From Bilabrum cf. latius (Eukaryota): a stretch of DNA of 64,000 nt. The notes below the pieces were generated by a model that did no database searches, had not been told where the DNA came from, and saw only the letters and a program-made list of their open reading frames with translations. Positions 1,304 to 62,303 of the stretch are shown piece after piece. Where the stretch lies: NCBI GenBank assembly GCA_965178125.1, contig OZ237767.1, forward strand, positions 372,001 through 436,000, written 5' to 3'. Positions within the stretch are counted from its first letter, which is position 1. Each line of letters opens with the position of its first letter. Both the position numbers and the translations under genes were made by a program.

Positions 1304-3642
1304 TCAAGTGCCGGCATCGTCCCCCCCTCGATCGGCGGGCCCTCCCTCCACGGCCGCTCCCTCATCGCGATTGCCTGTGTCAGAACGCCCAGCCGCTGCC
1401 ACCGCCCCACCACTACCGGAATTGCTGAGATCCTCCTCGTCCAGCGACACAGACCTTTGCCTGCCTCTCCTGCCCCTCCTCTTCACCTACCCCGCACCAA
1501 TGCCTTGACCTCCTGTTCCTACCCATCCCACTGGGGTCGGCTGCGGTGAGGGTGATGATGATGATGCTGGACCGCCGGCTGCACTCGTCACACGAATGCC
1601 CGGCCGGTCGCCCCTCGCAGCCGTGGACAGGGCCGCTGTTCCCCTTGTTCCCTAGCCGATCCCGTACCTGCCGTCGCTGACCGACCTAACCTCTGCCCCC
1701 GCCCCGGCTCCAGCCCATGAGTTGGCGCCGATGCGTGGGGGTAGCCCACGTACTGTACCCGTTGTGGCCTGCATGTGTGACGAGTGCGATGTCCCGCCCT
1801 CGTCCAGTCTCCTGACCCCCACCCTGGGGCTAGCCTCTGCCCACTCGTCATACCCGCTCGTCATACCAGTAGTACCGCTCGATGCCCGGCTGCCCCCAGT
1901 AAATCCGCCGCTTCTGCTCCTACGGAACGCGCTGTTGCCACCGCTGCCGCCAGTCGCTCTGCCGCTCAGCAGCACGGCAAAATGCAGAGCACCCTGCTGC
2001 ATGCTCCTGGGGGACTCATCCGCCCTGTCACCGTCCACGTCCCCGTCCTCGCCATCGTCACCCGACCCAAGATCCAAAGCAGAGTCTCCATGATGCAGCC
2101 GGTGCAGGTCCCTAGCCAGCTCCAGTGCGGTGTCAGTCACGGCCCGCGTGCGGAGGGAATCCGATGCCAAGCCGGAAGAAGACCGTCTGCTGCGGCCTCC
2201 TCCCCTCCTCCCGCGGCCGCCCACTCCTGCACCGAGACCGTCAGCACTCGTCACACGGAGAAAATCCATGCGGGGCGGCAGCGCGGGCAGCAGCGAGTCC
2301 TCTTCCTCGCCCCCCCCACCGACGGGGGAGGGCAGGGGAAATGCGCCCGGGGGTGAGCGGTGCATCTCCTGGCCCGTGCTGCGGGCATCGGCGCCCTTCG
2401 GGCTCACTGCCGCAGCAGCACTTTCATCATCATCATCATCATCATAATCACCGTTATCGTCTACCTCTGTTACATCTCGCCGGCCGTAGGGCCCGCCATC
2501 GTCCGCCTCGTTCTCCCCCTTCCCGCCTGCACCTGCTTGCGACATGCGCGCCACCTAGTCATCGAGGTCCGTTGCTCCGGTGCGGGTCCCGGGCGAACCA
2601 CTCGTCACACCGACCCGGATCCGCAGGTCTTCCGTTCCACGCCGGGGGCTAGGCGTGATGTCTGCGCCGGTGCCCACTGCCAACGCCCCTGAGTCACTCG
2701 TCACACCAATCTCCGAGGCAGTCCCCGCCGACTCCCCCCGCCTGCTCCTCGTGCCCTCCCTGCCGCCTGCGACGCTCTCCAAGCCGGCAAACGAAGACGT
2801 CCTCAATCTGTGGCCGCTACCCCCGCCCCCCACCACGCCCCACCGTTGGCCTTGTGCTGCAGCGGCCAGAGCGTCTACGGCGGCGTGTGCTCCCGCAGGC
2901 GGCGCGTCCTCCCACACACCCTCCTCATCCTGCTCAAACCAGAGCCTGTTCAGCACCGTGACGTCAATGTCTGCTATTTCCGGGGTGCCCGAGGAGTGAA
3001 GGTCGGCCCACGCGCCGCGTGCAGGGAGTCGCTTCGCGTCGGGGTCCGTGAATGTCTCCCTGCTGCTGAGCGACGGAATCAGCATGGTGTTGTACCCAGT
3101 GTATGCCAGCAGAAACATCGAGAATGAAACGAGCATCCAGGCCGGTATCGTCACCGCCAGCTCCTTGCTGGGATAGTAGGTGAACCCGACCGCGAGCAGC
3201 CATGCCTCAGGTACGAAAGCCCAAACAAAGAAGATGACTGCGAGCAAGATACTACGAAGGCAAAATTTGACGAGTCCATGACAAGTTTAAACATTATCAT
3301 GCGCATGCAAAACGGTGCCTGCCTTACTTAAAGACAAGGCGCTGATGGCCCATCCAGCGAATCCATACGCTGCCACGAGCCTGCTTTCTTTGACCTCAAC
3401 ATCAATATCACCAGCCGACGAAGCTCGTCTCCTGCGATTTCTAGCGGGGAAAACTAGAGACATACACGCTGGACGGTAGAATCCAACACTCAGCCAATTG
3501 CAACACGGGGTTCTCACCTGCTTGAGACCGAAGACGGTGATCCAGACTAAGATTCGACCGAGTCGGCTCTTTGGCGACTTTTACGATTCGAAGAAGGAGT
3601 ACTGACGCGACTCCTTCTCCCAGATGGCGTCGCGCGCTCCAT
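1304..3642 (-). CDS. PIGP: PIG-P-like GPI-GlcNAc transferase subunit with a long low-complexity C-terminal extension (spliced; in-frame TAG at 3547, 2555, 1652, 1487)
   Basis: Removing intron 3238-3327 gives YGFAGWAISALSLIIFFVWAFVPEAWL...TYYPSKELAVTIPAW...PEIADIDVTVLNRLWF, the PIG-P pattern. ORF pieces 2555-3247, 1652-2554 and 1304-1486 share one frame, are joined only by TAG, and end at TGA. The start and first exon are provisional. Confidence 0.8.
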
Positions 3643-3761
3643 CGAATGGCACAGACAGGAACTTGAAGTTGCTCTTTGCTGCATAAACGAACCTTCGATA
3701 AGATACGGGATGAGGTTCGCTCTGAACACGTAACCTCCAGAACTTCACACTGTGGGCAACT

Positions 3762-5738
3762 ATGATCCGCCAGGCTTCATGCGCGCAGCGAGTATCAAGA
3801 ACATTCAAATCTTTGAGCCTAAGGACGATCTCTGCATCTGCATCGTCCTTGTACGCATACAGAGCGGCGGCAGGCACTGCGGGATCAATCGAAGCCGGAA
3901 GCATGAAAGCGGTAGAATGCAAGGGAGCTGACGGCACTATTGAGGTGTTATTTGTGCGAACCAAGACGGGCAAACTGTTCGGAGTTGAACCAAAGTGCCC
4001 GCACTACGGAGCACCTTTGGTGAGCGGAGTCGTGGCTGACGGGACCCCAACCTATGGTGTCAAGCCGAGTGCCAGCGTAATCTGCCCATGGCACTTGGCC
4101 GAGTTCGACTTGGAATCAGGTGCGAGCCTTGGCGGTCTGGCACTACGCGGCCTGCAGACCTACTCGGTCAACGAGGCCCCTGACGGATCCATCAAGGTGC
4201 AGCCGAAACCGAGCAACGCCGACGAGGCAAAGCCGCTGCCAGGCGCTTCCCAGTTTTTGCTTCGCGGCGGATTGCAAGACATCGACGGGGAATCTGTCGC
4301 CGCCGGTCTCCTATCCAAGGTGGTTGTGGTGGGCGCCGGCGCGGCGGGCATGGCCGCTGTGCAGGAGATGAGGGAGACTGGCTACAGGGGCCAGATCGTC
4401 GTGGTATCCCAGGAGAGGCACTTGCCCTACGACCGGACGAAGCTGAGCAAGGGCGTCATGCCAGCATCGGACGAGGACATGGCCGCGCTCACTCTTTACG
4501 ATTCCGAGTGGTTCGAGGAGCACCGAGTGACGCTGCTCCTCAACACGACCGCGACGGACTGCGACATGCATGAACATTCATTCATGCAGGGCGGCACTCT
4601 AAAGCTCTCAAGCAGCAGCAGCAGCAGCAGCAGCAGCGCCCCCACGGAAGGGAGCCTCGAGTTCGAGCACGCCGTGTTTGCGACCGGTTGCATCCCGAAC
4701 CGGTTGCCATAGTCATTGGTTCCGCCAGAGCGCGGCGCCGCCGTGCTCCGATCCGCCGACGACGCCATGGCCATCCGGAAGTCTTTGGACAGCGAGGACA
4801 CCAGAAAGGTGGTCATAGTGGGGACCTCGTTCATCGGCATGGAGATGGCCAAAGCCGTAAGCGAGAGGCTGGGCAAACCCGGACCGGAGGGGCTGGATGC
4901 GCTGACCGTGGTCGGGATGGAAGACGGGGTGTTCGCGAACCTTCTCCCGCCCCCGGCCAGGGAGCCGATCGAGAAGGCCGCGAGAGAGGCCGGGGTGAAG
5001 TTTCACTTCAACGCCTCGGTCGAGGGAACAACGGGCGGGGAGGATGGCCGTGTGCAGAGCGTGCAGGTCAAGGAGGGTGAGAACGGGCCGATCGTTGATG
5101 TGCCCTGTGATTTCCTGATCCTCGCCGTCGGTGGGCAGCCAGCGACCGAGGCACTGGTCGATGCCCTGGCGCACACAAGGTGTGGAATGGACTCGCGGAT
5201 CCTTGTTGACATCGACTCCAGGTGCGTGCCCACCACGGCTGCAGACGCCTCTATTTTCGTCGCGGGGGACATCGTGAGCGCTCCCCGAAGACAGGGGGGC
5301 CGTCGCGATCACATCGAGCACTGGGGGCACGCACAGGCCGAGGGGCGGTGGGTGGGGCGGCAGGTGGTCAGCGCGGCAAGCGGGAAAGACTGGGGCATTG
5401 TCGAGCGGAATGAAAGCATACCGTTTTTCTGGACGGCGGGGTTCGGAGGGAACGTTCGCATGGCGGGTCACGCGAATGAGACGGCGGAGAGGACCATGAG
5501 CACGGATTCGGAGCCGGGCTCCGGGTCCTTTGGCGTGTTTTACCACAGGAACGGGGAGATTCATGCCATGGCCACCCTGGGGAAGGACCCAGCCCCTTCA
5601 GCATTCGCTGCCCTGGCCAAGGTGCGCAAGTTGCCGGGTGCAGAGGCATTCAAGGGCGAGGAGGAGGGAGGTGGTGGCGGTGGTGGTGGGAAGGGACTCG
5701 CGACCACCGACATCGTCGAGGCGCTGAAGAGGGCCTGA
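3762..5738 (+). CDS. Rieske 2Fe-2S domain plus FAD/NAD pyridine nucleotide-disulfide oxidoreductase (AIF3-like); in-frame TAG at 4710
   Basis: CPHYG...CPWH Rieske motifs, the GAGAAG FAD motif, YDRTKLSK, VVIVGTSFIGMEMA, AGDI, IEHW and IPFFWT. The two halves are in frame across one TAG and the gene ends at TGA. Confidence 0.9.
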
Positions 5739-5909
5739 GCATCACGGGTGGCTGGAATTCATGTGGGTTTAGCGGATACGTCCAAAAAGCGCGTTTATTC
5801 GAAAATCTTTCCTGTGCAGTGGCACAGGACAACGAGAGTGAAAGTAGATCCACCATGCAGTGCAATTGCCGCAAGAACTGCATGGAGCGTTGTGGGGCCC
5901 ATTGTATTG

Positions 5910-8900
5910 ATGCAAGTCCTTGAAGCTATCGTAACGAACTTGCCTGTGCTTTGCATTGCCATGATAGCGTGTGCAGTAGCAAGAACAGAGATACCGTTTC
6001 AGTACGGTTGGCGGTTTCAATTCTGCGACGCGTCGTCCGGCGATCCAAATTGTATGCCGGGACCATATGGCGATGCACCAAGCATATTCGCAAACTATTG
6101 GAACGATTTGGCAGGATTCATTTGCACGTAGGCGGATGGGTCTCCTCTCCTAACCTCTGACAACAGATTTACTGCAGCAGATTGCGCGACCGGTTGCGCG
6201 TACGAACCAAGCTGCTTGGCGTGGCAGGCAAACCCTGGAGTAATTCATTGCGTGTATGCATTCAAAGGGTACAGATGCCGTCCAGACCCGAGCAAGAACG
6301 CAACCGCGTGGACGCACGGCGGATCCAGGACAGAGGAGCAGGCCAAGCGACCGATTCGAACCGACTATCCCTGGGCCAAGGAGAACCTTCCCGAGGCAGA
6401 TACATGGGAGATTGTTGATGCACCACACGATTACTTGATTCGGAACTCCACGTTCACTCACTTTGCCGATCCGTTCCACGCATACCTGCCTCGCAACTCG
6501 ACAGGATGGTACAGAAAACAGTTTGTCTTGCCCGAGGAATGGCTGCCGTCCATTGCAGGGTTTAACAGCACGATATTTATCCGATTCGAAGGCATATTTC
6601 ACCTCTCGTAGATCTGGCTGAACGGGCAGTACCTCGGCCAGCACGGCTCCCAGGAGGGCGGGTACTCGTAGTTCACCGTCCGGCTGGACAACTGCACTGC
6701 ACTGCGGTACGGTGCTTCCTCCTAGCCCAACGTGCTGGCCGTCCGCGTGGATGGATCCTTCGGCTCCGGGCACTGGTACGAAGGAGCCGGCATGTACCGC
6801 GGTGTGCAGCTGGTGAGGGCCCCCCTTGTGCACGTGGTGGAGGGAGGCCTCTTCGCCTCTCCCGAGCTCGATGTGACGAGTGATCAAGGTGTGACGAGTG
6901 CGACAGAAGGTGCAAGAGATAGAGGCACCGTGTCGATTCCAGTGTCCGTTGAGCTGGAGAACCATGGTTTAGAGGTTGCAACCGCTCGCATCGAGGTGCA
7001 ACTCACATCTGTCGATGGGGGTCCTGTGTTGGCTCGAGCGAATGTGACGAGAGTGATCGAGACGGCCGTGAGCTCCCCGCGGTGCATCCGTGACAGTGCT
7101 ACGCATGTGACAAGCGAGGGGGCAACAAGGCCGGGACTTCAGTCTGCATCATCGACCACCGCGCCGCACACGATCACGGCGCTGCTCACTCTCGATGTTG
7201 CGCCCAACGAGCTGGAGGCGTGGTCCGTGCAGCACCCCAGCGGACTGTATCAGGTGACCGCGACAGTGACTGCACTGCGCGGCGGTTCATCGGATCATCG
7301 CGCTCTTCCGACCGAAACATCAGATGCGGGATCATCGGAGATCCTCGCCGATGAGGTGACGGAGGAGGTTGGGTTCAGGACCGTGTCTGCCTCTTTGACG
7401 GAGGGCCTGATCCTGAACGGGGAGGCCTTCAAGCTCAGGGGGTTCTCCCACCACAACTCCTTCACGCAGCTGGGGACAGCCTTGTCCCCCCGCTTCGAGC
7501 TGTACAGGGTGCAGCAGGCCAGGGCCATGGGCGCCAACATCTGGAGGAACTCCCACAACCCCTACCGGCGGGAGCTGTACCAGCTGACCGACAGGATCGG
7601 GATGGTCATGTGGGACGAGCACAGGGACTATGGAGTGTTCGGGCCGTCAAGCAGCGAGGCGCCGCTCGGGGTGCAGGGGTTCAGCTACCTCCCTGGCATG
7701 CACGCCATGGTGAAGAGAGACAGGAACAGGCCTTCCATCGTGATGGCGAGCTTCTGCAACGAGTACGCGTGCGGGTGTGGCAGGAACACGACTGGCATTG
7801 CCTTCAGGAACGTCTCCAAGGCTCTTGCTCCTCACCTGCTCACTGCAGCGAATGGCGACACTGTGGGGCTGGACGTGCAGGGGCACTCGCACCGTACCAA
7901 TAGCACCTTTGCGCAGTTTCATCAGGAACACCCCGGTGTTCCCCAGGTCTTGTCCGAGTGTTGTTCCTGCAAGAGCCAGAGGCTGCCTGCCATCGATCGC
8001 GCGCTGCCTGCCTGCATCCAGAACGAGAACTCGCCAGGCCTGCTTCCCTACGTGCTCGGCTCTCTGGGAGTCTGGACCAGCTTCGATTACTACGGGGAAC
8101 AGCAAACATGGCCCGATGTGAGCAGTCCTTTCGGCCAGTTCGACATCGCAGGGATGCCCAAGCCGCACGCGTTCTGGTACAGGGCCAACTGGCTCCACAA
8201 GCGGCCTAGCACGGACCCGGGCAAGCCGCTGCAGCCTCCCGCCAACTTGACCAGGGTCTTGGATCTGCCCGACCAGCTGCAGCTTCTGGTCGACGCAGGT
8301 CCTCGTAGCGAACCAGCAGCGAACGTTCGTGCTATTAGCACGAGCCCAATCGCCGAGCTCATCACAGACGGAAAGAGCTAGGGCAAGCAGAGCACGCAGG
8401 GATCCTACCCTGACCAGGTCAACATGGTCAGCTGGAGCGTGCGCTTGGGGAACGTTCACCGAGAGAACAATGCGCACCCGGAAGAAGGGCAGTGCGAGTT
8501 CCCTACGAACCTGACGAACGTTCACTGCCTCGGACTCTCGAAGATGCCGGAGCCCTCCAGCCCGGACCAGTGCAGGCTGGGGTGCTGCGCGCTGCCGGGC
8601 TGCACTGTGTGGCAGTGGGCAGCCGACCGAGGGTGCTGGGCCGGCAGCGTGGACACAAAGCAGTGCGGGGCCAGCCGCGGCGTACCATGGGTAGGTGGGG
8701 GGCGAGCGGAGGCCCCTGGTGTGACGATTGCGAACCTGACCGTGCTGGGCCTGGCCGGGGACGGCAGCACCGTGGAGTCCAGGCACACCGTCCTCGCGCC
8801 CTCTGGAAATGACACGCTACTTATGGGTATCACAGACGTCCCCAGCCCCGCCTCGGGGACCGGCACCGCCCTGCTCCTCGATGGGGAGGACACTGCCCTG

Positions 8901-9401
8901 CTCCGGGTCATGCTCGCCGACGGGCAGGGCAACTTGAGGAGCACGGCGGTTGCCAACGTCAGCGCCACGATCGAGTCGGGGCCCGGGCGCGTGCTGGGCG
9001 TGGGCAGCGGAGACCCGGCCTGCAAGTGCCAGCCGGGCAGCGAGTCTTGCGGGACCTACGGCGGGCTGGCGAGGGTGCTGGTGCAGGTCACGGCCGACTG
9101 CGTGACCCCCAGCCGCGCGCTATCCAAGCAGATCGACGTGGACTCGGGGGCCAGGACGCTCATCGCGGGCCAGGGAACAGGGGTCGCGTGCCCCTCGGGG
9201 GGGGCGAACGTCGTGCGGGTGCAGGGGGTGTTGGATCCCTCCACTGTTCCCCAGGGAACAAGTGCTACGGTGGTGACTCGTGTGGTGGTGCCTGTGTCCA
9301 TCGATGTCCAATCCGATGGGGTACTTGCCGTGGCGCGCTCCAGTGGGATGCACGGGCAGGAACAGGATGTGGGGGCGATGATGGACCGGTTCCTCGGGTG
9401 A
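5910..9401 (+). CDS. Secreted glycoside hydrolase family 2 (beta-galactosidase-like) with Cys-rich inserts; in-frame TAG at 6129, 6609, 6669, 6723, 8379
   Basis: Hydrophobic N-terminus, GWYRKQF, FEGIF..S*IWLNG, WYEGAGMYR, RNSHNP, RDRNRPSIVMASFCNE, WTSFDYYGE, FGQFDIAGMPK and GVGSGDP. The frame is continuous to TGA at 9399. Confidence 0.9.
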
Positions 9402-10466: not shown

Positions 10467-10567
10467 TCGGTAGCAAGATACAATTGGCCACGCATTGGAT
10501 GGCTGCAACCCTGGCACTGCCCTCTTATTGCCCCAAAACCCCTTGCACCGTCACCTTCACCTTCTAG

Positions 10568-13849: not shown

Positions 13850-16800
13850 TTATTGGGATCCATCCAAGCTGAACTTCTTCACCGCGCCCCTTGAAGACAG
13901 CGGCGGGCGGGGCTCCAAGGGTCCTTTCGCTGGCGACCTCGTGTGGCTCCTCGCGTCACTCTGACTGCGCTCTCGGCTCATGGGCGGCAGGTGCACGGGG
14001 ACAGAGGAACTGCCTTGCGACCCATGGGCCGAGGATGCAGACCCTCCGCTGCCGCCAGTGGGCGCTGCTGCAGGGTACCCAGGTGACGCTGCTGCCGCCC
14101 TCGGCACCCTTCCGCCTGCTCTTGCCCCTGCCTGGGTCTGCTACTGCTGCTGCTGCTGCTGCTGCTTCTGCCGCTTCGCCGCACTCGTCACACCAGCCCC
14201 GCCCTGCTTGGCTGCTTCCTTCAGTCGGCCCATCCTCTGCCTCAGGCTCGCCGCCCTCACGGCCCCTCTGAGCAGCCTGGCTCCCCTGCCCGGGCGACTG
14301 CCGGGAGTGCCTCGCCCGCCCAAACCAGCGCTCGTCGCGCCGGAGCCACTACTGGACATGGGCGTGGCGCTGGGCGTGAGCTGGGCCTCGTCGTGGATGG
14401 ACCGCATGTCCAGTCGCGGAGGCGGAGAAAAGGCGCCCAATGTGGGTCCGCTCGGCCGGCTGTCACCACTGGCAGTGACGTCCCGCTCGTCATCATCACC
14501 AGCACCTACCCTCTACCCGCTCGCCAAACGGACATTCCCGCTCGGCGACCGGCCCATTTTTGCCATGAGGAGAGGCCGCCCCGTAGGAGGTTTCGGACTG
14601 TTCCCTGAGAAGGACAGCGAACGTTCGATGGCCCCCGGGCTAGGGTTTGACTTGATCCCCTTTCGCGGGCTCCCCATGGCCCTTGGTGTGAGTCCGGCTG
14701 GCAGCAGGCCTCCTCCCCCTTTGGTATCTTCAGCAGCCAGCGCCGACTCCAACGAAAAGCTCCCGTGTCCGCTCGTGCCGCCTCCCGAAGATCCAGAGAG
14801 CCTGTGCCTGCCCCTGTGCCCCTGTCCTCTTGGACTGGCCTGCGCCGCCAGCATCGCCTCCGGTGTGAGGACGGGCCCATCCTCTGACAGCCGCAGCATG
14901 CTGTTCTCACGCTGCACCATTAGGAGCCTCTTCTGTTTCCTGCCCTCATCGCTGCGTCTCGAGCCCAGCGAGCCCACCGACCTGACCGAGTCCTGTCTCT
15001 TGAACCGCCGAGGAGAGGCTGACTGGCCCCTGGGGAACTGCGGCGAGTCGTTTGGGTCTGAACCGCCCCCAGTCCGCCTGCCGGCAGCCGCACCACCGTG
15101 AGCCCTAGGAGTCATTGCGCCTGCCATCTCCCTCTCATCTAGGGAGTGCCCCGACCGCACGCTCTCACCGCCCCGCATGGAAACATGATGCCTCGGTGAT
15201 ACGAGCAGGCCGGGCCCCGCAGCACCTGCCAGTGGGCCGCCCCACACGGACCCACCACCGCCCGACACGGTTGACGTGCCCTACTGCCTGGGATTCTTCG
15301 CAGGAGACGCGCTGGCGGCCTGCACCAGCTGCGGCATCACGGTGGAGGCCGCGCCCAGCCGTTCGCAAGCCAGCCTGGACTGGTTCTCAAGAAAGTTGTT
15401 CACCGGATGCGAGTCTCTCAGTTTATCAAGGCCCTGGGGCTTGTCGATGAGCGTCCTGGACGTGAAGGCGTCAATCTCCTGCGCTGCCTGCGTGGTGTAT
15501 TCGATCCATTGCTCCCGGCGCTGCTCCAGCACGAGGTTGACCCAGCCCAGCTCAGACACACCCACGTCCTCGTCTTCGTCCTCCACCCCGGGATCGGTCT
15601 CCGCCTCGGAGACTGACACAGACCCAGTCACGCTGGCCGATGACGACAGAGCGTCAGAGGACCGCTGGTGCCTGCCACTGCCGCCCAGCCGACCGCTCGT
15701 AGAACGGGCGGGCGAAGCTGCGTGTGCATGCGCATGCCCCTATGCAATGGCGATTCCTTGCTGCTTTACCGCCGCGTGCTTCTTCAGCGTGCCCTTGTGC
15801 ATGTCGTCGTCATGCACGGTCAGCTCGGCAGCTCGCTTGAACATGTCCCGCGCATGCTGCGGAATATCCTGCATCTTGGGCCTCTCGCCCCCTGTGGGGT
15901 CCACGGACGGTGCAAGGGCCGGGCAGTAGCACGCGACCAGCCCCGCAAAGTCCTGCAGACCGAGCCTGACATGCGACGCGCGCACCCCCTTCAAACCTCC
16001 GGGCACGCTGAAACCACCAGGACCCGAACGGCCACTACCGCCATGCCCACCCGCAGCAGCAGCAGCAGCCCCAGCTGTGCCACTTGCACCTGCCTTTGCA
16101 GCCTCCGCGTCTCTCTTTGCCTGCTTTGCTGACACGGGCGGCCCTCTCAGCGACCCCCTGCCCGAGGCAATCCCAACCGCCCTGCGATAGAGCAGGCGCA
16201 GCCGCCTGATGTCCCGCAGGTGCTCGCCGAACCAAAGCCCGAGCAGCGTCTCGAGAAGACTGTCTAGATCCCATCGCCGCCTCCGGAGCTGAGTCTTACC
16301 CCGGACAGACGGGTCGGTCCTGAACTCGGTCAGTCCGGAGACTCCCAGCCCCTCGGCGTCTCCTGAGGAGCCCGACGATGTGGTGGTCCCAGTCGCCTGG
16401 CGCTTGAACGGGAACGGCCCGTGCTGCTGCTGCTGCTGCTGTGGAGTGCTTGCGCCAGGGGTGCTGGCCTGTCCTGGCGTGCCTGCACCGCCAATCGCCG
16501 AATGGCCGGGCGTGTGCGCCCCTGCCGCGGATTCTGCATCTCCCTGCGTCCCTTGCTCGAGCAGCCCTTTTAGCCTCTGAAGGAAGGGCTTCTGCACCGG
16601 GCTGGCGAAAAGAGAGGACGTGATCGAGTTAATCATCCCGAATGATAGGGTGACCTGACGCCGGCGACTCGTGGCTGTCGACCTCGAGCTGGCTGCCTTG
16701 GACTTGCGGGCTTTGGCCGCCCCAGAACCAGGTGTACCGTCGCCTGCTGCTGCACCGGTCACCTCGTCGACGGTGTGGTCCATCCCGGTCCCCATCTTCT

Positions 16801-39500: not shown

Positions 39501-40534
39501 AGGTCTCGAGGGCTCGAGCGGCGGCCGCCGGGGCGGGGCAGGCGTGGCCCAGCCTGCATGAAGATGGGGTGACGCAGGAAGAGTTCCGCACGGTGGTGCT
39601 GAACCCCGCTCACGCCGATCGACTGGAGTCCATGGCCGTGGGTGAAGTGCCTGCCGCTGCCGCTGGGCTGGTGCCGGATGACGTCAGGGCCCTGGTGCGG
39701 TTCGGGCAGGAGGGGCTGCACGTCGGTGAGGTGGCGGGGGGGGCGGGGGCTGCGGCGGTCGCGGCCCCAGTGGAGGGGGATGGCGATGATGCGTCGCATG
39801 CGTCGGACGACACGTCTCACGTGCCCTCTGCAGCGTTCGGGTCCGAGGTCAGGGACCGGAACCAAAAGGAGGGGATTATCGGTCGCAATGACGACCCGGT
39901 TGCAACCTCGGGAGGCGTGGCCGGAGGTGCGAGCAGGCACTAGGTTGGCTTGGGCCGGCAGGTGACGATCACTGGCTCCATCGCGCCCGCTTCTTCCGGG
40001 CCGTCCGCTGCCGCCGCATGGCTTGCCGGGCTAGGCGAAGACTGGGGGCCAGCGGACTATGGGCAGGTGTCGGGGAACACGGAGGAACCTTCGCTTTCGC
40101 CGGTCGGAGGGGCCGCCACCAGCGGCGGCACCATCGCAAACGAGCTGATGGTGACCCGCCAGGGTACTCTCACCGGAGAGATCCGAGAGGACGGCACTGT
40201 GACGAGTGCATCCCGGGTGCAGGAGAGGGAGGGGCCGCAGCTGCACAAGCTGAGCCTCGGCGGCGGGCCGGGCGCTGTGCCCATGGGGCGGCAGGGCACC
40301 GACATCGGCACTCCGGTTCCGCAGGGCGCCGCGCATCCCGCGGATGAGGCTGTTGTGGCGGCGTCAGCCGGTGGTGTCCATGCCGAGAGGGCAGACGCGG
40401 TCGCCGATCCCGAGGCAGTTGCTCGGCTGGGCCGAAGCGAGCAAGGCGGCGAGGTGAGCCCCGTCGGGGTTCAGGCCGCGTCAGCATCAGGAGGGTTTGG
40501 AGGAGCGCCCGTAATGATGCGGCAGATATCATGA
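33506..40534 (+). CDS. Very large multi-EF-hand calcium-binding protein; TAG at 33948, 34952, 35804, 37091, 37460, 39119, 39941
   Basis: EF loops DTNGDGSLDENE, DRNGDGLLS, DANNDGVLSFDE, DADRNGLVDKKE, DTDGDGYVSMRE, DRSGDGKLSMRE, DVDHSGTVDSRE and DADRSGGLSERE. Two 5' introns (about 33606-33731 and 34332-34549). The downstream fragments share one frame and end at TGA. Confidence 0.85.
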
Positions 40535-47300: not shown

Positions 47301-48429
47301 TGCAGCGGCGGTGGGCCCGGAGAGGCTTGAAGGGCTGCACAGTGCGCGGTTGAGCATGACTCCTGGCAAGCACACAACGGAGGCTGGGATCACGATGACC
47401 ACTGGGGCCGCAGCCGTCCACGAGATCGGTGAAGAGCGCTTGGAGTATGACACGAGCAGGGGCGGGCCAACCAAAGAGAGGGAGGGTGGAGGTGGGGCTC
47501 CGCATGGCTGGGACTAGGACCGGCCTGGACGGGTGCCGCCTCATTTGCCATTCCCCAGAGGAAGCCTCGCTTCTGCTCTGCAGCTGGTGCGCGCTAGGGG
47601 CTACTAGGGCATGTCAGCCATGCGGGCCATAGCAGATGAGCTTGAGGGCGGTGAGGAGCTCTGCGTGAGGGCGCTTGCACTCCGGAGGTTTGTGAGGGAC
47701 TGCCTCTTCAGCCCGGATGGGACACCACTGGAGCTGTGGGAGCGCAACGAGGGTCTGCTTTAGGCCACTAACTTGGCACATGTGACTAGTGGCTTTGCCG
47801 CGACGCCAGCTGCTGCTCCTGTGGCTGCTGCTGGATCGGGCGACAGCTCTGGTGTGGCGGGGCCAGCACCTGCGCATGCCTCCGGACATGATTGCGGCTC
47901 CGAGTCTACCATTGCCCAGGGACTGTTGGATCCAATGGAAACTGGAGAAGTGCGCCTTCCAAGTAGCGAGGTGGCCGGCCGCATCCTGTCAAGGCAGGCT
48001 CACGAATGGGGGGCGCTGCGATAGGATTAGGCCGGGTCTGCGATTGGGGAGCCAGACCCCAGCGATGCTCGCACCAGGGAACGAGCGGAGCGCAGGCAGC
48101 GCTGGGCCCGAACGTATCCCGAATGGGCTGCTAGCTGTCGCATCGCGCATGCCTCGTTTGGCAAGTTGGAGCGGTCTGCGATCGATTCGGCCTTGCAGAG
48201 GGTTTTCGAGACCGAGCATGCCATGCACAGCGGAGCCTGGTCCTCGGGGCGCACTGGCATGCCGGGACACATTGCAGAGCGAATGAGGAAGCAGGCGACC
48301 TTGCCCAAAGGTATAGGTCGGCATATCGTGCTGGGAAAGGCAGCTCTTCGGATAGGCGTGCTGCAGGAGATGCAGAGGGCAGCGAGGCGAGGCGTTTCCT
48401 TGAAGGATGCCGGCAGTACTCCAGAGTGA
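44302..48429 (+). CDS. Ankyrin repeat protein with a Gly/Trp/Arg-rich (GGWGG/RGG) repeat insert; multiple in-frame TAG
   Basis: Three 5' introns. MHLACATG...GYTPVDYA, SPLMLAL, GETVLHW and GRTPMHLACATG. Fragments from 45187 to 48429 are in one frame and end at TGA. Confidence 0.75.
45412..45640 (+). repeat. G-rich coding tandem repeat (GGWGGGGGRGGWGGR units)
   Basis: Recurrent ggatggggtgg...ggcggcag/taggggc units. Confidence 0.9.
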
Positions 48430-49133: not shown

Positions 49134-52100
49134 TCAAATTATTCCGTAACCAATCAGCTCATCTAGCCACTGGAGCACATCCTCATCGCCGTTGGGGTCT
49201 GGCGATGAATGGCTCCTTAACTTGGCACAGATCGACGTCTTTTTCTCGGTGCCACCGCGCAGCAGCTTCGCAGCAGAGACGCCACGCTGTGCAAGTCCCC
49301 TGCGACGAACCTCTGCAGATGCCTCCTGCGTGGGTCTGAACTGGATTGCGATCTGGAAGCCCCGAACCTGCCTCCCTGACCTATCCGGGCCGACGAATGG
49401 CATGAGCCCATGCAAGGGAGCACCGTCACCTTCCGTCTGTCTGACGTGCTGCGCCGCGAACCCCTTCAGCTTGGGGTGGTCCGCAGCATGCACCTCCCAG
49501 CAGCCCCGCCCTGCAGCTTCCGTCCAGCCCTCCATGTGCAAGTAGGTGAAGGTCGGGTGGACCAGCCTCAGCGCAGGCAGATCTACATCACGGCCAGCGT
49601 CCTTTGGGCCACGCCGGGATGCACCTCTCTTTTGTCTCGTGCTCCCCGCCGCGCGGGCGGCCGATGATGACGATGACGAAGATGGGGCCTAGGACGAGGA
49701 TTTCGCGGCTAGGCTTTGGATCGCAGCTGCCCCTGCCCCTGCCCCTGCCCCTGCCCCTGCCCCTGCCCCTGCCCCTGCCCCTGCCCCTGCCCCTGCCCCT
49801 GCCCCTGCCCCTGCCCCTGCCCCTGCCCCTGCCCCTGCCCCTACCCCTACCCCTGCCCCTGCCCCTACCCCTGCCCCTCGCAAGGAGGAAGAAGAAGACG
49901 ATGAGGCAGAAGATGAAGGCAGCCCTGCGGCCTGATGGCTAGTATTGCTACCACTGCCCTTGAGCCCATCTGGAGCTGGCTGCACGCCACCCGCACCTTG
50001 CGCCCCAGCAGCACTGGAAACAGTATCAGCGGCCCTGACACGAACTTGACTCTCTCCTGCACCCGCGGAGGGAATCTCGATGACCTGCACCACACCCTTG
50101 GCCGCTCGACGGAGCAGCTCGATCGAGCACTGCACCGCAAAGGCGTAATCGTCGAACAGCCGCACCACCGTTGCGGCCTTGATCCGCCTCAGATTCATCC
50201 TGTTCTCACCCCTTCGGTTGGACTCCATGGCCAGCTCGAACCATTTGTACCTAGAGCTTGACCGGATCCATTCAGCGGGCACCTCAACTAGCTCTTTCCA
50301 GCGAACATTCTGGGGAATTCTGGAATGCCACGTGGAAGCCGCGGGATTCCTGATCCCTAGGGGCACCTGCGAGGCTGTGCCCCTTGGGACAGGGAGGGGG
50401 GGTGGACTGGCGAAGGCAACGTGGCCAATGCTGGTGCTGCTGACACTACTGCCAAACTTGGCGTTCGACCGCATTCCAACGCCAGGACTCATGCCTGCAC
50501 CCATGCCCGCGCCTATATCCAAGCCCAAACTGGCAGCACCCATGCCAGCAGGCATCCCCGTGTTCCGTGCCACGGCTTGTTCCCTGGCTTTCTCTCTCGG
50601 AGCTGTGCCTTGTACCCCAGCGGCATGCCCCGGGAAATCAAGCACGACTGCCCTTGCACTGCCTGGCAGGCCAGCAGGCGCACTCCCCCCGCCCATCCCC
50701 TCTGGAGGGCTCCTCGCCGTGGCCTAGGTCACACGGGTAATACCCACTGCCAGGGATGGTCCCCCGCTAGGCAAGATGCCACCGCCGGTCGGTGCCCCGA
50801 GCGGCAGGCCCGGTACCCTACTTGCATTCGTCACACCCTAGCCAGCGGGTGGAGCGAGGCCTGCAGCAGGGACACCCTGCACTTGCCCGGGGCCGGTTTG
50901 CATCGTGCGGGCGACCGGCAGTGGAACGGCCGTCAGGGCAGTTTTCCACGAGGGGAGGGGCGAAGGCAGCGGAGGGGGAGGGACGATGTGCGCCCCTCCG
51001 CGCGGTGCTTCTGTTGATGATGCAGGGATGTCGCCACTACTGATGATGCTAGTCGTCACGCCCTTGCTCCCACTACCGCTACCGCCGGCCAGGCCAGCGC
51101 TGCTGGTGGCTGTCGGTGCCGACTGACGAGGCGGGTGCATGCCTTGCTGAGGCAGCGCCCGTCCGTCCGGGAGAGTCGTCAGCGCCGAGGCCTTGCCTGC
51201 CGAATGGCTTGCTTCCGCGGCCCCTTGCCCATAGCCTGGTGCAGATGCAGGGCCGCAGCCGAGAGCATCGGTGGCGCTCAATTGACGGCCGTCTGGACCC
51301 CCGGCGCGGTCTATGTCGGCTTGCTCGCGCTTAGATTTCTGCCCAACGACTCTCTTGTTTACACTAACAGAGACCTAGTTCCAGGCGAACTGCGAGTCGA
51401 GCTGTTGGGATAGCACAGCCCCGTTCTGTTGGGACCTGAGCGAGGACTTCTGCTGCTGCACGCCGACTTGCAGGGCAGGCCCTGCTCGCACATCAAGTTC
51501 TTTGATCGCAGACTCACGATGCCTCTCTCCTAGCAAGCCCAATCTACCGTGCGATGCCGCTCCATGCGTATCATGCCAACCTTGACTCCTAGGTAAGCCG
51601 GCCTAGTAGCCGTTCATGTGGTCTCCCTGTCGTTGTGCCCCGTTGGATCGAGGCAGTAGACTGCGCTGCGGTGGACCCCCCGAGGGATACGCAGGGTAAA
51701 TGCCGTAGTCGTCTGAGCGAAAGGGTCCTGAGAATCCGGCAGAAGCTTTTGCAGAGTCGTCTTGAGCTCGCTGGCGTGGCGTCTCGGTGCGGCTGCCTGC
51801 CTTCCGCATGGCATCAAGTAGCTAAACGGCCATTCCCGCGCCTGCCAGGCCTACTGCTCCAGCAGTATGTCTTGTTGCGTGCTAGACGTGTGGCTGCGCG
51901 TGTGTTTGCAACGAGGAGTCTAGGATGAGCGACGCAGCGCCATGCTTGCCATGGCGCTTGTACAACTCCTCAACGCTGCATCCGAGCTGCATCGCTAGAA
52001 TCAGCACCTACTATTGCAATTGAAGCAAATAGAGCTGCTCCTCCTATCGCATTCGAAGCTTGGCTTGCTCAATTTCTGTCTTGCTTCCGTCCAGTCCGGC

Positions 52101-52475
52101 CCCAACAGAACGAAATGGTTGGCCTCGTTGCTAGGTTGCTGCGATGCCTTCCGCCTCCCGCTAGCCCCCATGGATGATGCTTGCCTGACCCATTGTTGAA
52201 TACCGTGGTAAGTGTGAGTATCCAGCTCTATCGACCCGCTAGTGCACCGTAGACTGAGCTTGGCCGCCAGACTGTGACTGTCGGCTTGATGATAACGGCA
52301 TCGGTACCGGTGGAGTGTCGCCGGCCGCAGCGATTCGGGCACGTTTACGCTGGTAATTGGTGTATGGCGGGCGAAAACTAGACTACAGAGCCGTCGGCCT
52401 TCCAACCATGCCACGACCTACGTAATCCTCGGCTTGAGGTGAAGCACCCGGCGCCACATGAGCCCGCCCAGACAT
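49134..52475 (-). CDS. Uncharacterised low-complexity protein with Gly-Ala repeat; many in-frame TAG in its 5' part
   Basis: ORF fragments 49134-49541, 49689-50696, 50838-51281 and 51603-51809 share a frame that stays open (TAG only) up to about 52590. It includes EIEQAKLRMR*EEQLYLLQLQ**VL. Ends at TGA; the start is uncertain. Confidence 0.65.
49727..49878. repeat. (CCCCTG)n hexamer microsatellite encoding poly(Gly-Ala)
   Basis: About 25 nearly perfect units. Confidence 0.95.
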
Positions 52476-53232
52476 GCCTCCGGATGGACCATGCGATATA
52501 CTAACCGGGTAAGCAGAATCCTGGGTGCTAAAGTCATGCTAATATACTCGACTGACTGCGACTTGTTGGCAAGCTTTTACAGTTGGGACGCGTCACGTGA
52601 GCGCGCAAGGAATACGAGCATTTTCAGAAGACAATCAGCCTCACCAGGTTTGGGCGGCTACTGCTACAAATCTGAGCCCATTTCGGTCCCTGCTAGCGCA
52701 GCTAAAGCACTTAATCCGCCGTAGTTTCCAGGGGCCGATGCTGCCGAACTAGCTGCGGTCGTTGGATGTTACGGCGATCTTGGCATCAATTTACTCTTGC
52801 GTACTGTACTGCTGCTACCGAGAAATATTTTTGGAAAAGTTGGCTATTCTCACATTGACTTTCCATCTTTCAGCGGACGTTGAACGGCTCGTGACACCTG
52901 CTTAGCTGCCAGGTAAGCGAATCTACCGGGCACTGCAGAGTCTCGAGCTCCTCGTTGGCTGCCTATTGCGAGCTTTTTCCCGGTGATATCCGAGAATCAA
53001 TGGTAAAATTATAACGGATATTTCAATGTGTGAGAGATAAACGCGAAATCCTAAAGGATTCAAGCGTTTATCGCTATTTCAGGCTAGCTCTAGCGCAGCT
53101 GCTGGCTGCGCGCTAGTCTGGTTTACGGTAAATATCACTACAATTGCGGGCCGCTTGCTCGGAGATAGCCGGTTAGGGCACACGTCGAGCTGTCTACTTC
53201 AAACCCCTGCACCGCTACGTGCAGACCAAGTC

Positions 53233-55149
53233 TCAGTACCAATCGCATGAGCACACGTCGCCATCGCTGCTGCCATCCGCTGCACCAACTGCCAGCTCAA
53301 CCATGTGAATCGCGATACCGTCACCGGCTCCTCCTCGCCCAGACGGCATCCGACCAACAGATTGCTCGAGGCTTCCACCCATCCTATCACCATTTCCTGG
53401 TGCGCCCTCCCCATCCCCATCCCCATCATAATCAAGATCGCCGCGCACCGCCTCCACCCTCACCTGCGCCCCTTCGCTCCCACCAGGCACGGGGCCCAGG
53501 CGCCCGGGCACCTGAATTCGGAACGTCTGCCACTCCCCAGGACTGGAACCACCAGGGAACACAAAACTGCGCGACGCTCCACTCTCCCCCTCCTACCCGA
53601 TGGTAACGTTTAAGTCCACATTGGCGCTGCTGCTGCTGTCCCACAGCGCCGTCACGCACACGAACGACGGTGCAGCTCCACTTCTCGCAGGCCCCGCGGG
53701 ATTGCCGCCGCCCGGTCCGGTCCGGCCCGTGAGCACAGCATCCATCACAACTTCGATGGGCGCACTCGTCACATCAATTTTCCTGGCCCAGGCCCCGAAG
53801 CGCTGGTAATACGGCCCGATGGATCTCATGCCCTAGAAGGTCCGGTTCTGCACGACCGGGGCCTCGGTACCGTCCCTCCTGGCGTCCATCCAGGGAACAA
53901 GGGACTCGGATGCCTTCGTGAGACGGGCCAGAAATCCGTAGTCCTGCACGTCTCGGTTGTAACCGCCCAGGTCGAGCACGCTCCTCCGCATGGCGACAAA
54001 GCCCCCTGGCGAGCTCGACGGCGATGCGACGTGGGGCGCATACCGAGCCGCCATGCGGGCTGCAGCCAAAAACTGGCCCTTGTAAACGGCCCCAACCTCC
54101 ACTCCTTTGTGCGTGCCTCTGGCTGCCACCTCTAGGTTGTCTCCATACATCGCCAGGAAAGACACCCCGTTGGACAAGTCGCTCAGCACGCGCCACCACA
54201 CCCACGCGGGAGGGGGGCACCAGTGCACCCCCTTGAGCTTGTCGCCTTGCGCCGGGGCCGGGGGGGGGGCACCGTGACGCTCTGATGGATCTGGGCCCCA
54301 CGCGTCGGCCCACGGCTCGGCGTAGCACGTGGTGTTTCCCTGCTTGCACCAGTCCCTTAGAACCAAGTATCGCAGCGCGGTCTCGCTGTCCCTTGGCTCC
54401 ACCTCGGAGGACGTGTGAAACCATGACAGCGATCCGTTCCTGAAATAGTCCTCGATGGTCTCGTACAGCGAAGGATTCAGGGCTAGGTTGTTGCGCACGA
54501 ACAGCCGTGGGGCTCCGGTCTGCGTGAAGCCTTGCACATACGATGGCAGGATGGCTGCTTCGTAGGCGTTGCGTGTGGCTGTCTCGTTGCACCACGGCCC
54601 AAGCGGCACCCCGGCGGGAGTTGTCCACGATCTCGGGTCCATAAGATTGCCTGGGCATCCAAAATGTTCGGTTCCAACGGCATCCCAGTTCATTCTGACC
54701 ACGCTAACGCTGGTCGATCCGGCGTTACTTGCCAAAATATTCTGTTTGGCAAGCCAAGCTGAGGTGCCGACGACAAGCTGCTACCTCGCCTTGATGTAAT
54801 TCGGATGATACCACATCAAGTAAAAATCATCTTTGTCCTCTGAATCACCCCACGAAGGTGTGTAGGGTATTTGTTGACGCATCCAGTCCGGATGGTACAT
54901 TGCATTCACCTAGAAGCTCGTCTTGGGCAAACCACATGGCTACTTCCCCATAACTTGCTTGGCATAGGTCCAATTGTACTGATCGCTGTTACTTGGCTGC
55001 AGCTGCTGCCACTCAAGGACGGTATCACCTCCCACAACGGATACGTTTAGATCTTGCAGCAAGCTGCAATCCGTCATCCACGTGAAATATAGGCCCGCCT
55101 AACTGGTATTGGCATGTAAAAACAGTAGAGAAAGGATCAAGTATTTCAT
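53233..55149 (-). CDS. Secreted putative glycoside hydrolase (TIM-barrel, GH42/clan-A-like); in-frame TAG at several sites including 54781, 53833, 53593
   Basis: Signal peptide MKYLILSLLFLHANTS*A. LEWQQLQPSNSDQYNW, PDW, WYHPNY, GTE and YAEPW. One frame to TGA. The family assignment is tentative. Confidence 0.6.
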
Positions 55150-55318
55150 GAAAAAACGTATCCTGGTGGTGCTGCCGTGCACCGGATTCGCGGGCGCGGC
55201 GCCGCGATGGGACACCGCAACCTATTTTTGGCTTGATGAGACCAAGAACACATTGAGAGGAGACAGCATAGCTGAGGTGTCTCGAAGTTATCCATACGCC
55301 ATTCTCTCACTGGCAGTC

Positions 55319-56398
55319 ATGCGTTGTCAGACTGCTTCCCTCACCCACGCAGGGCTGCTACTGCTCGGATTGGTGATGGCTGCCGTGCAAGCCTAGTACG
55401 TCGGAAATTCGAGCCGGATGTGCCGCCCCGGTGCCCAGTACGCCCGATCGTAGTTGCCTCAAAATTTACCGAGCGTAGGGATCCTCGGGGACAGCGTTTC
55501 GATCGGCTGGACTCCCGATGTAGCGTCTAACTTGGCGCACGACGCATCCGTTCAACACATCCCGTTCTCAGGGGACGGGGGCGCCCTGGATACAAAGTAC
55601 CAGATTGATTGCATGCAGTATTTCACGCGGTCCGCGCAGCTATTGGACACGTCGTACGACGTGATCGGCTTCAATTCTGGGTTGCACGACGTCAACTACT
55701 CCGGACAATACCCTGAAGAGTACACCCCAAAGCCGCAGTACGTCTCTAACCTGAGAATCATTCTGCAGAGGCTCCTCGCATCCAACGACGGACCGGGCGC
55801 GCCCCCGGGCGCCAAGCCCACACGCGTGATCTGGGTGACGACAACCCCGGTCCCGTTCAGCGCCGCCCGGGACGAGCTGGTCAAGGAGTACAACGCCGCC
55901 GCGCTGCAGGTCATGCAGCAGGACGGGTAGGGTAGGGTGACTGTGGTCGACCTGTACACCCACGTGATCTCCATATGCGGGGAACCCCCCTACACTTCGT
56001 GCAACATCAGCAACACGAGCCCCTCCCACCCCTCCCCCCACTACACCGCCGCCGGGTACCAGTACCTCGCCTCCTTCGTCACAAAGGCGGTGCAGGAGGC
56101 CCTTCAGGCGCAGGCCAAGGGCCGCCCCGTTGGTGTGACGAGTGCGCCGAAGGACACGCGGGAGGGCGCGTCACCGGTGGGGTGCGCTGGGCAGGGGGTA
56201 CCGCAGGCAAAGGGCAACAGCTCCTGCTTCTCGGACACCTCAGGGTGCATGCCCGACTCGTGGTCGTACAGCGGCTTCGGGTGCTGCGAGCTGTCCGCGG
56301 GCGCGACCTACTGCGAGGACGACTGGCACTGCTGCCCTGCGGGGAGCAAGTGCATGGAGGGGTGCAGCCTGCACGGGTGCGGGTGCGTGCCGGCGTGA
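55319..56398 (+). CDS. Secreted SGNH/GDSL hydrolase with a C-terminal granulin-like Cys domain; TAG at 55394, 55451, 55928
   Basis: Signal peptide, ILGDSVS, FNSGLHD, WVTTTPVP, VDLY and HYTAAGY. C-terminal CC...CEDDWHCCPAGSKC. Confidence 0.88.
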
Positions 56399-57200: not shown

Positions 57201-60837
<3,637 letters not shown>

Positions 60838-60975
60838 GATGCACAGAAATCAGTGCCAGCTCGGAGGCGGTCGCCTCACTGGACGATTTCCAGTCTGTAT
60901 TTCTACAGAAGTGCCACAACGACACGCAACAAACCACAAAAGTGCAAAAAGATCCCAACAGCCCCTCAGTGTACA

Positions 60976-62303
60976 ATGGCGGATACAACAGCATCACAAC
61001 CACCAGCAAGCGTATCGCAGTCTAGTGATGACCGAGGCCCGCTGATATAGCACTTCATGGGAAGGGCTCCGCCGGCACAAAGTCGAGCGGTTGCATCTGG
61101 TAAGCTCGTCATGAGGCATTACAACTGGGAATACAAGCTAAATCTGCATGATTCCTACTCCTTCGCATTTTCCATGTGCCAATCAAGCCTGGTGCAGATG
61201 TTAGCAAAACCCTGGGCACGCCGCTCGGCAAGCTACTGCCAGCTCTGGCAAAGCAGCACGCAAAATCGTTCACGCTTGCGGACATCGAAGGAGACGATGG
61301 CGGCAAAGTGATAATATGCCCGGCTGCAGCTGTAGACACGAAGCACTTTATACACTCGCCGACGGGCCGCGTGATGGCCGTGGACCACGGTAAGCTCCGA
61401 GCGCGGCCCGCTGGAGAGGGCGCCCCAGCCGCTCCGGCCGTGCCTGAGGAGATCGAGCCGCTCCGAAAAGAGCTTGATGCAGCCGCAAATGAGTATGCGA
61501 CTAAGGTATTCGCGGGATAGGGCGGCCCACAGGGAGCGGCCGGCGCGTTTTCCCGCGGCGGCGAGATCATGGTGGTGCTGTCGGGCGAGCGCCGGGACAC
61601 GGACAATTACCTTGCCTCCCGGTGGGCCTCCCGGTGGGCCTTCGGGCCGGAGAGCGGGAAACTGCGGGGCCGCATCGAGGTTGTGTCGCACTATTTCGAG
61701 AACGGCTCCGTGTAGGCCTGCTTCGACCGGAGGTGGGACGACGTGCCACTGCGCGGGCGGGGGGGCGAGGCCGGCGCGGGACCCGGCGAGAGGGCGGGGG
61801 CGGTGCTCAGGGCAATCGCTGGCCAGGAGGCAGACTTTCAGCAGGCTATTTTGATGCATTTCGGGCACCTCTCCGACCAGGGGGTGCAGAAGACCCTCAG
61901 GAGGCTGCTCCCGGTGAGCAAGCAGCCAATGGTGTGGGAGGCCGGGCAGCACCGGACCAGGAGGTTGCTGGGACAGACCGCCCCTGCTGCGGCGGGCGGG
62001 GTGGGCGGGGCCGCGAGGATGGAGGCAGCCGCGCGGGCGAGCGGTTCGGGAGCTGCGGCGGGCGGCACGCCGGGTTCAGGCAAGAAGAGGAAGCTGCCAG
62101 TCGGTGTGGTGCAGGGCAGCCCCCAGGCGGCTCTCGCGGCCGCGATGGCTGGGGGCGGATCGGGGCTGAAGAAGCTGAAGAAGGCCAAGGGGAAGGGGAA
62201 TGGAAAGGCGGGAAGCTCGTCGCCGGCACAGCCCTCAGCCGCCTCGGAGCTACAGGCTGCGTTCAAGAAGAAGCTGAAGAAGACTGGCGGGGATGGCAAG
62301 TGA
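60976..62303 (+). CDS. CAPZA: F-actin capping protein alpha subunit with extended basic/WH2-like tail; TAG at 61048, 61518, 61713
   Basis: LI*HFMGRAPPAQ...DV, NYLASRWASRW, IEVVSHYFENGSV*A and KTLRRLLPVSKQPMVWE. One intron at about 61100-61197. Confidence 0.88.

Follow-up and report, generated by a model that had tools for sequence, protein, structure and literature searches.

The 64-kb stretch of DNA considered here (contig OZ237767.1, forward strand, positions 372,001 to 436,000; this whole stretch is referred to below as the window) raises a question that bears on genes of both its strands, namely what the triplet TAG means when it stands in frame within them. With 56-69% G+C and about 20 protein-coding genes, the window had been presented in a preliminary description, made from the letters alone, as carrying 20 genes with more than 70 in-frame TAG; the count comes here to about 19 genes and to 78 TAG in 15 long frames, plus others outside those frames. 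The reading favoured here, with a probability of about 0.8, is that the window would be nuclear DNA of a GC-rich (61%) protist with few introns, the most likely affiliation being with the stramenopiles, and that UAG would serve there as an ordinary glutamine (Gln) codon while UGA, as the main stop, and UAA terminate translation, which corresponds to NCBI table 15.

Reading frames and transcripts that run through TAG

Under the standard code, the longest stop-to-stop frames of the window reach 842, 708 and 636 amino acids (aa). When TAG only is opened, frames of 3768, 2060, 1220, 1152, 1092 and 1012 aa appear and stretches free of TAA and TGA extend to 11.3 kb; when TAA only is opened, the longest frames are of 842, 708, 636 and 601 aa, i.e., there is no gain. 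Opening TGA gives a longest frame of at most 1131 aa, together with a larger summed length in frames of at least 300 aa (44,400 aa vs 28,834 aa), which is due to TGA being the commonest stop triplet in the DNA of the window. In the 15 long TAG-open frames, which lie on both strands and comprise 15,194 codons, the three triplets are distributed as follows:

In frame: TAA 0, TAG 78, TGA 0
Frame +1: TAA 37, TAG 80, TGA 264
Frame +2: TAA 34, TAG 93, TGA 258

TAG is therefore about equally common in every frame, whereas one of the three is devoid of TAA and TGA. The in-frame zero of TAA and TGA, which agrees with the earlier statement that the genes hold no internal TAA or TGA, is by construction of the frames. 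Out of frame, the two triplets total 71 TAA and 522 TGA, and at about 1.95% of TAA plus TGA per out-of-frame codon a gap of 3768 codons is beyond chance; over the region of that longest frame, the two other frames hold 7 TAA with 56 TGA and 11 TAA with 58 TGA, respectively. As opening TAA lengthens no frame and no TAA stands in frame, UAA is not a sense codon in the genes of the window, just as had been proposed. Downstream of the first ATG of their frame lie 75 of the 78 TAG, which make up about 12% of the Gln-type codons of the long frames (78/669). The genes and frames on which the argument leans are the following, positions being those of the window:

1307..3286, minus strand: PIG-P gene frame, 660 codons, with 3 in-frame TAG and a TGA end (Pfam PF08510, E 1.7e-24)
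3726..5735, plus strand: gene with Rieske and pyridine-nucleotide-disulphide oxidoreductase domains (AIF-like), with 1 in-frame TAG (4710-4712) and a TGA end (Pfam)
5739..9398, plus strand: GH2 glycosidase gene, with 5 in-frame TAG (6129, 6609, 6669, 6723 and 8379) and a TGA end (Pfam)
13853..25156, minus strand: 3768-codon frame, with 15 in-frame TAG, of which 14141-14143 lies within a poly-Gln run, and a TAA end
30264..33299, minus strand: protein kinase and Armadillo repeat gene, with 4 in-frame TAG, the last one (30279-30281) 5 codons before TGA (Pfam)
34352..40531, plus strand: EF-hand protein frame, 2060 codons, with 6 in-frame TAG, of which 35804-35806 lies within a poly-Gln run (Pfam)
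49137..52592, minus strand: 1152-codon frame without family match, with 15 in-frame TAG
53236..55287, minus strand: GH42-like glycosidase frame, with 7 in-frame TAG, of which 54910-54912 falls in a conserved Gln column (22 homologues)
55103..56395, plus strand: GDSL-like hydrolase frame, with 3 in-frame TAG (weak Pfam match below cut-off)
57201..60837, minus strand: MCM3 gene, 5 exons, with a TAG at 60634-60636 and a TGA stop at 57201-57203 (Pfam MCM)
59090-59325, 59594-59790, 60278-60385 and 60504-60614, minus strand: the four MCM3 introns (X5 contig, see below)
60976..62303, plus strand: CapZ alpha gene, 2 exons, with TAG at 61048, 61518 and 61713 and a TGA stop at 62301-62303 (Pfam, PDB)
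61099-61196, plus strand: CapZ alpha intron, GT..AG (joint in X5 and X8 contigs)

Outside the long frames, further in-frame TAG are found in MCM3 exon 1 (60634-60636), CapZ alpha exon 1 (61048-61050) and the tail of an E2 ubiquitin-conjugating enzyme (27188 and 27260), as well as in smaller frames, namely those of a MORN protein, of a DUF829 protein, of the C-terminus of an acyltransferase and of the stretch 218-1132.

Contigs of four public runs (X1, X5, X7 and X8, filed under four organism labels) were compared with positions 49900-62400. While a single X1 piece, which may be the source DNA, spans this region without any difference and X7 contigs are collinear with the genome, a 3012-nucleotide (nt) contig of X5 joins 59089/59326, 59593/59791, 60277/60386 and 60503/60615, i.e., all four MCM3 joints, the skipped pieces ending CT..AC on the plus strand and hence GT..AG on the minus strand; in CapZ alpha, contigs of both X5 and X8 join 61098/61197 (GT..AG). 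None of these five joints is present in the X1 and X7 contigs. With five GT..AG introns skipped in X5 and X8 and kept in X1 and X7, it follows that X5 and X8 contain complementary DNA (cDNA), although no run is on record as one of RNA. Once joined, the MCM3 exons stay open in frame over 2985 nt and contain one TAG, which lies 20 nt into the exon past the last joint, the contig extending over at least 118 letters on that side; the CapZ alpha exon 1 TAG lies within a spliced X8 contig. In-frame UAG is thus kept in spliced MCM3 and CapZ alpha cDNA contigs and occurs within genuine, expressed genes. Removal of TAG by splicing or editing and errors of the consensus, both raised beforehand as possible objections, were looked for: the spliced contigs retain TAG, and in each contig piece of more than 100 letters there are 0 differing letters in all four runs, an agreement that speaks only against common editing, as contigs drop rare variants. 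Among the 28 TAG of the compared region, 19 fall in listed X5 or X8 contig pieces, the rest being uninformative with no such pieces listed at 52087-53432 or in CapZ alpha beyond 61516. By frame, X5 pieces collinear with the genome hold 9 of the 14 TAG of the 1152-codon frame that lie in the compared region, X5 pieces hold 6 of the 7 of the GH42-like frame, and pieces of both X5 and X8 hold all 3 of the GDSL-like frame.

Two of the initial statements need to be narrowed in this light. The absence of frameshifts stands within exons and does not extend across whole genes, since introns are present (four in MCM3, one in CapZ alpha). As regards essential genes with in-frame TAG, MCM3 and CapZ alpha are retained. 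DYNC2LI1, assigned as cytoplasmic dynein 2 light intermediate chain through a match to PDB 6rlb (E 3e-32, aligned from residue 54), is less secure: the two TAG of its long frame precede both the part aligned with 6rlb and the first ATG, so that they probably belong to an intron, and the one other TAG stands in what may be the first exon, the splicing of which is itself putative.

Some side observations concern the same contigs. The MCM3 intron 60504-60614 is of 111 nt, a multiple of three, and is open in frame, so that its removal is visible only from the cDNA contig. Over the acidic low-complexity part of MCM3 (57406-58239), hundreds of short pieces cross-map, all four runs being affected and depth reaching 2684, and give spurious joints which lack GT..AG ends and are not introns; short pieces that differ from the window there look like cross-mapping as well. 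Near-identical sequence occurs in runs X1-X8 filed under four organism labels by four studies, and the organism may be a companion or a contaminant of other cultures or samples.

The residue specified by UAG and the triplets that terminate

To which residue TAG corresponds was considered in alignments of four genes with TAG kept as X, namely the GH42-like gene (22 homologues), MCM3 (87), GH2 (57) and CapZ alpha (150 representatives), where 14 of the 15 TAG columns are usable (occupancy of at least 50%). Gln is the commonest residue in five of the 14:

54910, GH42-like: Gln in 19 of 20 homologues, glutamate (Glu) in 1 of 20
6609, GH2: Gln in 27 of 55, commonest
8379, GH2: Gln in 18 of 47, commonest
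60634, MCM3: Gln in 15 of 72, tied with threonine (15)
61713, CapZ alpha: Gln in 134 of 149 relatives, and in 3 of the 3 PDB CapZ alpha chains shown

Summed over the 14 columns, the log2 odds amount to +3.8 for Gln, the next residue being alanine (-17.6), with Glu at -21.2 and every residue other than Gln at -17.6 or below. As a control, 1000 random sets of 14 columns were drawn from the same alignments for each residue type. Sets of true CAG/CAA columns give a mean of 4.27 columns topped by Gln and reach the observed Gln score in 73% of draws; sets of any other residue give a mean of at most 0.58 such columns and reach five in 0 of 1000 draws, and those of Glu, lysine or leucine (Leu) columns match the observed Gln score in 1% of the draws or fewer. 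The TAG columns therefore resemble Gln columns and those of no other residue, in keeping with the assignment to Gln originally put forward. TAG also occurs inside poly-Gln runs at 14141 and 35804.

Closer relatives provide a further view on the same gene, CapZ alpha. An exhaustive search for CapZ returned short protein fragments of near-identical genes. Two of them, P0265 (112 aa) and P0415 (122 aa), share 98% identity with the window and end with "KVFAG" exactly at the window TAG 61518. P0263 and P0413 (135 aa, 95-96% identical) begin at the next methionine, carry Gln at the window TAG 61713 and end with "RRLLG", one residue short of a window Gln coded CAG. P0264 and P0414, 69% identical, have Gln at both window TAG sites. 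The records of these relatives derive from contigs of 1.3 to 8.6 kb, so that the protein ends are probably stops of the standard code and not contig ends. From these records, one site would be TAG in both strains, one would be TAG here and CAA or CAG there, and one would be CAG here and a stop triplet there, a site exchange that corresponds to the pattern expected if TAG and CAG were synonymous.

As for termination, the 15 long frames end with TGA in 14 cases and TAA in one, and six further frames end with TGA in five cases and TAA in one, one of these ends being probably that of an exon and not of a gene; the ends are of the kinds described beforehand. In GH2, the two nearest homologues end at the residue just before the TGA of the window, and UGA is a terminator in the genes of the window. 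TAG as the usual terminal codon, another objection raised in advance, was looked for: after the last TAG, 12 of the 13 long frames with a TAG past the first ATG run for 60-343 further codons, the distance to the stop being of 5 codons in the kinase-Armadillo gene, 60 in PIG-P and 96 in the 3768-codon gene.

Several observations weigh against reading UAG as Gln under table 15. In nine of the 14 usable columns, which come from four genes only, the column is variable or favours a residue other than Gln: glycine (Gly) is commonest at GH2 6129 (GH2-131), GH2 6669 (GH2-311) and CapZ alpha 61518 (CapZ-108), phenylalanine at GH42-like 53595 (GH42-565), and both nearest homologues have Glu at GH2 6669. 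True Gln columns behave likewise in the same alignments. The AIF-like TAG (AIF-329, 4710-4712) falls in a variable column, with G, G, N, T and T in five PDB alignments to distant bacterial relatives, and this column is uninformative, not contrary; in the GH2 PDB alignments, too, TAG stands at variable columns. Among neighbours of TAG, 12 of 155 (7.7%) are Gln or TAG, against 7.6% around Gln and 2.8-6.2% around ten other residues, which makes for a weak test. Considering the stops, TAA ends come from two frames only and are known from the frames alone, and the last TAG of the kinase gene, 5 codons from TGA, could itself be the stop. The TAG at the ends of the relatives' proteins is inferred from protein records, not from DNA. 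Finally, ARAGORN found 0 transfer RNA (tRNA) genes over the 64-kb window, which does not contain the eRF1 gene either.

Decoding of UAG, alternative explanations and known codes

By analogy with other such codes (PMC5304391), UAG would be read by a tRNA-Gln with anticodon CUA, which would not read UAA and which probably arose from a duplicated tRNA-Gln(CUG), one mutation away (PMC5304391), while the N-domain of eRF1 would no longer be efficient at UAG recognition, as proposed for the T32G substitution of Iotanema (PMC5304391). As only a CUA anticodon reads UAG without UAA, a tRNA-Gln(CUA) is expected.

It is conceivable, and in our view improbable, that UAG is dual, i.e., Gln inside genes and a terminator near the 3' end of some messenger RNAs, like in the context-dependent codes of Condylostoma and karyorelicts. 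The proximity of the last TAG to TGA in the kinase-Armadillo, PIG-P and 3768-codon genes (5, 60 and 96 codons) would fit such a code, and frames that read through every TAG by construction would hide any TAG terminator. Against it, the 60-343 codons that 12 of 13 frames continue beyond the last TAG without TAA or TGA are unlikely for untranslated sequence at about 2% stops per codon, the two nearest GH2 homologues end at TGA, and no frame requires a TAG end.

A low probability is likewise given to the possibility that UAG is read as Gln by the normal tRNA-Gln(CUG) through near-cognate pairing, the grip of eRF1 on UAG being lost and no dedicated tRNA being involved. No tRNA(CUA) was found in the 64 kb searched, stop readthrough driven by tRNA-Gln is described for standard-code organisms in published abstracts, and for most variant nuclear codes it is not known which tRNA does the decoding (PMC5304391). 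On the other hand, with TAG at about 12% of Gln-type codons and present in MCM3 and CapZ alpha, efficient decoding is needed, and known cases, namely Tetrahymena and Spironucleus, use a tRNA-Gln(CUA) (PMC5304391).

That UAG is sense for another residue, such as Glu, known from some ciliates, or Leu or serine (Ser), known from a rhizarian and from Scotinosphaera, is very improbable. The Glu at GH2-311 in the two nearest homologues, the Gly commonest at three columns and the origin of the usable columns in four genes only would leave some room for it, against which stand the column scores (+3.8 for Gln vs -17.6 for alanine, -21.2 for Glu and at most -17.6 for any other residue), the control sets of Glu, lysine and Leu, which reach the Gln score in at most 1% of draws and never yield five Gln-topped columns, and the Gln found at CapZ alpha sites in relatives at 69-96% identity. 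An artefact, be it pseudogenes, assembly or base-calling errors or TAG spliced or edited out before translation, is hardly credible: no support for it was found, apart from low-level editing that could escape contigs which drop rare variants, and it conflicts with frames that are interrupted by TAG only and never by TAA or TGA, with the agreement of the contigs of four runs in pieces of more than 100 letters, with TAG kept in spliced cDNA contigs and with standard-code open reading frames (ORFs) of related strains that stop at the same site.

Taking UAG as Gln with UAA and UGA as stops, the code can be set beside those known from nuclear genomes. UAA and UAG nearly always change meaning jointly; the only nuclear cases given for UAG alone reassigned to Gln are Iotanema spirale, Protocruzia tuzeti and two phyllopharyngean ciliates (PMC11687900), UAG to Leu in a rhizarian (exLh) and some phyllopharyngeans and to Ser in Scotinosphaera (PMC11687900; exLh and Scotinosphaera also PMC5304391), and UAA with UAG (UAR) to Gln, i.e., table 6, in many ciliates, Hexamita, Streblomastix, some ulvophytes and the aphelid Amoeboaphelidium (PMC11687900). 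The fornicate Iotanema spirale resembles the window in that UAG alone codes for Gln with UAA and UGA as stops (PMC5304391, PMC11687900), and in being a non-ciliate flagellate for which a tRNA-Gln(CUA) and a change in the eRF1 N-domain were predicted (PMC5304391), namely the substitution T32G in the GTS motif, proposed to lower affinity for UAG (PMC5304391). It differs from the window in belonging to the Metamonada, a supergroup unrelated to the stramenopile-like window, in the dominant stop, which is described as UAA in Iotanema (PMC5304391) vs TGA in 14 of the 15 long frames here, and in the material, its code being known from a transcriptome, whereas genomic DNA with introns and cDNA contigs are at hand for the window. 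Protocruzia tuzeti and the phyllopharyngeans Hartmannula sinica and Trochilia petrani also use table 15 with UAG as Gln only (PMC11687900), on a similar argument, i.e., internal UAG at conserved Gln columns and C-termini off UAG (PMC11687900); these species are ciliates and have a nanochromosome or macronuclear biology, whereas in the window the DNA is GC-rich, the introns are of the conventional GT..AG type and MCM3 falls with stramenopiles. UAR codes share with the window the turn of a stop codon into Gln, probably via mutated tRNA-Gln genes, but reassign UAA along with UAG, whereas the window has 0 in-frame TAA vs 37 and 34 in the other frames and no gain on opening. In exLh (UAG as Leu) and Scotinosphaera (UAG as Ser), the nuclear code treats UAG separately from UAA, as in the window (PMC11687900, PMC5304391); Leu or Ser for the window UAG is ruled out by the column scores.

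The type of code is thus known (NCBI table 15) and it is the lineage that appears new for it. No nuclear stop-codon reassignment in a stramenopile was found by full-text searches of the literature, supplements and subscription papers being outside them, and as the runs date from 2025 a report may exist. At even odds in our estimation, the window would be the first example of a stop codon reassigned in the nuclear genome of a stramenopile, UAG alone having become Gln there independently, in a GC-rich, TGA-stop genome that is not under the AT pressure usually invoked when a stop codon is lost; the independent origin is suggested by the placement of the organism and by the absence of reports in these searches. 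If true, TAG and CAG still swap between strains 95-98% identical, so that the reassignment would be datable and the tRNA and eRF1 changes traceable among relatives. A further origin in an unrelated, GC-rich lineage, with genome, cDNA and very close relatives already among public runs, would also allow study of how eRF1 releases UAG yet keeps UAA, and of the origin of the tRNA. On the practical side, standard-code gene callers break these genes at every TAG, public collections carry CapZ alpha of the relatives as separate fragments (112, 122 and 135 residues) cut where TAG is expected, and annotation, orthology and phylogenomics of the organism would be wrong unless table 15 is applied.

Organism and remaining features of the window

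The affinity with stramenopiles, suggested from the outset, is backed by a single-gene tree. Named matches to MCM3, whose family membership agreed with a protein atlas search that gave no useful taxon, are the labyrinthulomycete Hondaea, many oomycetes, two ochrophytes and fungi. In a FastTree phylogeny rooted on fungi, the query falls within a non-fungal clade (SH-like 0.94), the named members of which are all stramenopiles, then in a 20-tip group (0.933) where Hondaea is the sole named member, and is nested with five environmental or EukProt sequences (0.997). With one gene and a candidate set picked by shared words, this points to a stramenopile possibly near Sagenista/labyrinthulomycetes, as a lead and not a placement. 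The term flagellate would stem solely from the DYNC2LI1 gene, i.e., the light intermediate chain of the intraflagellar transport dynein. A metagenome scan with MCM3 gave 80 loci, mostly distant MCM genes, with no close relative and no clear TAG-open signature among them. At two of these loci, opening TAG added more than opening TAA: L026 then totals 2743 aa in frames of at least 200 aa, against 553 aa before, and L064 totals 9444 aa against 4505 aa, gains that may be noise as the longest frames are barely altered.

Pfam domains in the window are those of PIG-P, Rieske and pyridine-nucleotide oxidoreductase (AIF-like), GH2 glycosidase, MORN repeats, EGF modules, E2 ubiquitin-conjugating enzyme, acyltransferase, kinase with Armadillo repeats, a large EF-hand protein, DUF829, ankyrin repeats, MCM (MCM3) and CapZ alpha. 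Besides the genes given above, the following carry in-frame TAG:

26144..27280, plus strand: E2 gene, several exons (splicing putative), with TAG 27188 and 27260 in the C-terminal tail and a TGA end (Pfam UQ_con on one exon)
28144..30199, plus strand: acyltransferase gene, two frames (intron between them inferred), with 6 TAG in the N-terminal frame and 1 near the C-terminus (Pfam PF01553)
45151..48426, plus strand: ankyrin-repeat protein frame, with 7 in-frame TAG (Pfam)

Other searches were negative within their scope: an Rfam scan of the window matched no family, a PDB search with MCM3 exon 1 as query gave no MCM match, exact matching of seven ORFs from the window against the protein collection gave 0 of 7, and a BLAST of the window proteins against one another for paralogues across TAG sites gave low-complexity matches only. 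An internal repeat of the kinase gene, where by eye TAG stood opposite Gln, was not recovered by BLAST and was left unused.

Within the 1152-codon frame, a long GCn/GGn repeat (49727-49842) codes for (Gly-Ala)n. The GH42-like (minus strand) and GDSL-like (plus strand) stop-to-stop frames are divergent and share about 185 nt at their 5' ends (55103-55287), where the true starts probably leave a short common upstream region. Relatives of the GH42-like gene (53236-55287) are patchily spread, the sole named homologue being bacterial (Flavobacteriaceae), and so are those of the GH2 gene (5739-9398), which include a sponge, Monosiga, Diplonema and bacteria; both distributions may reflect gene transfer.

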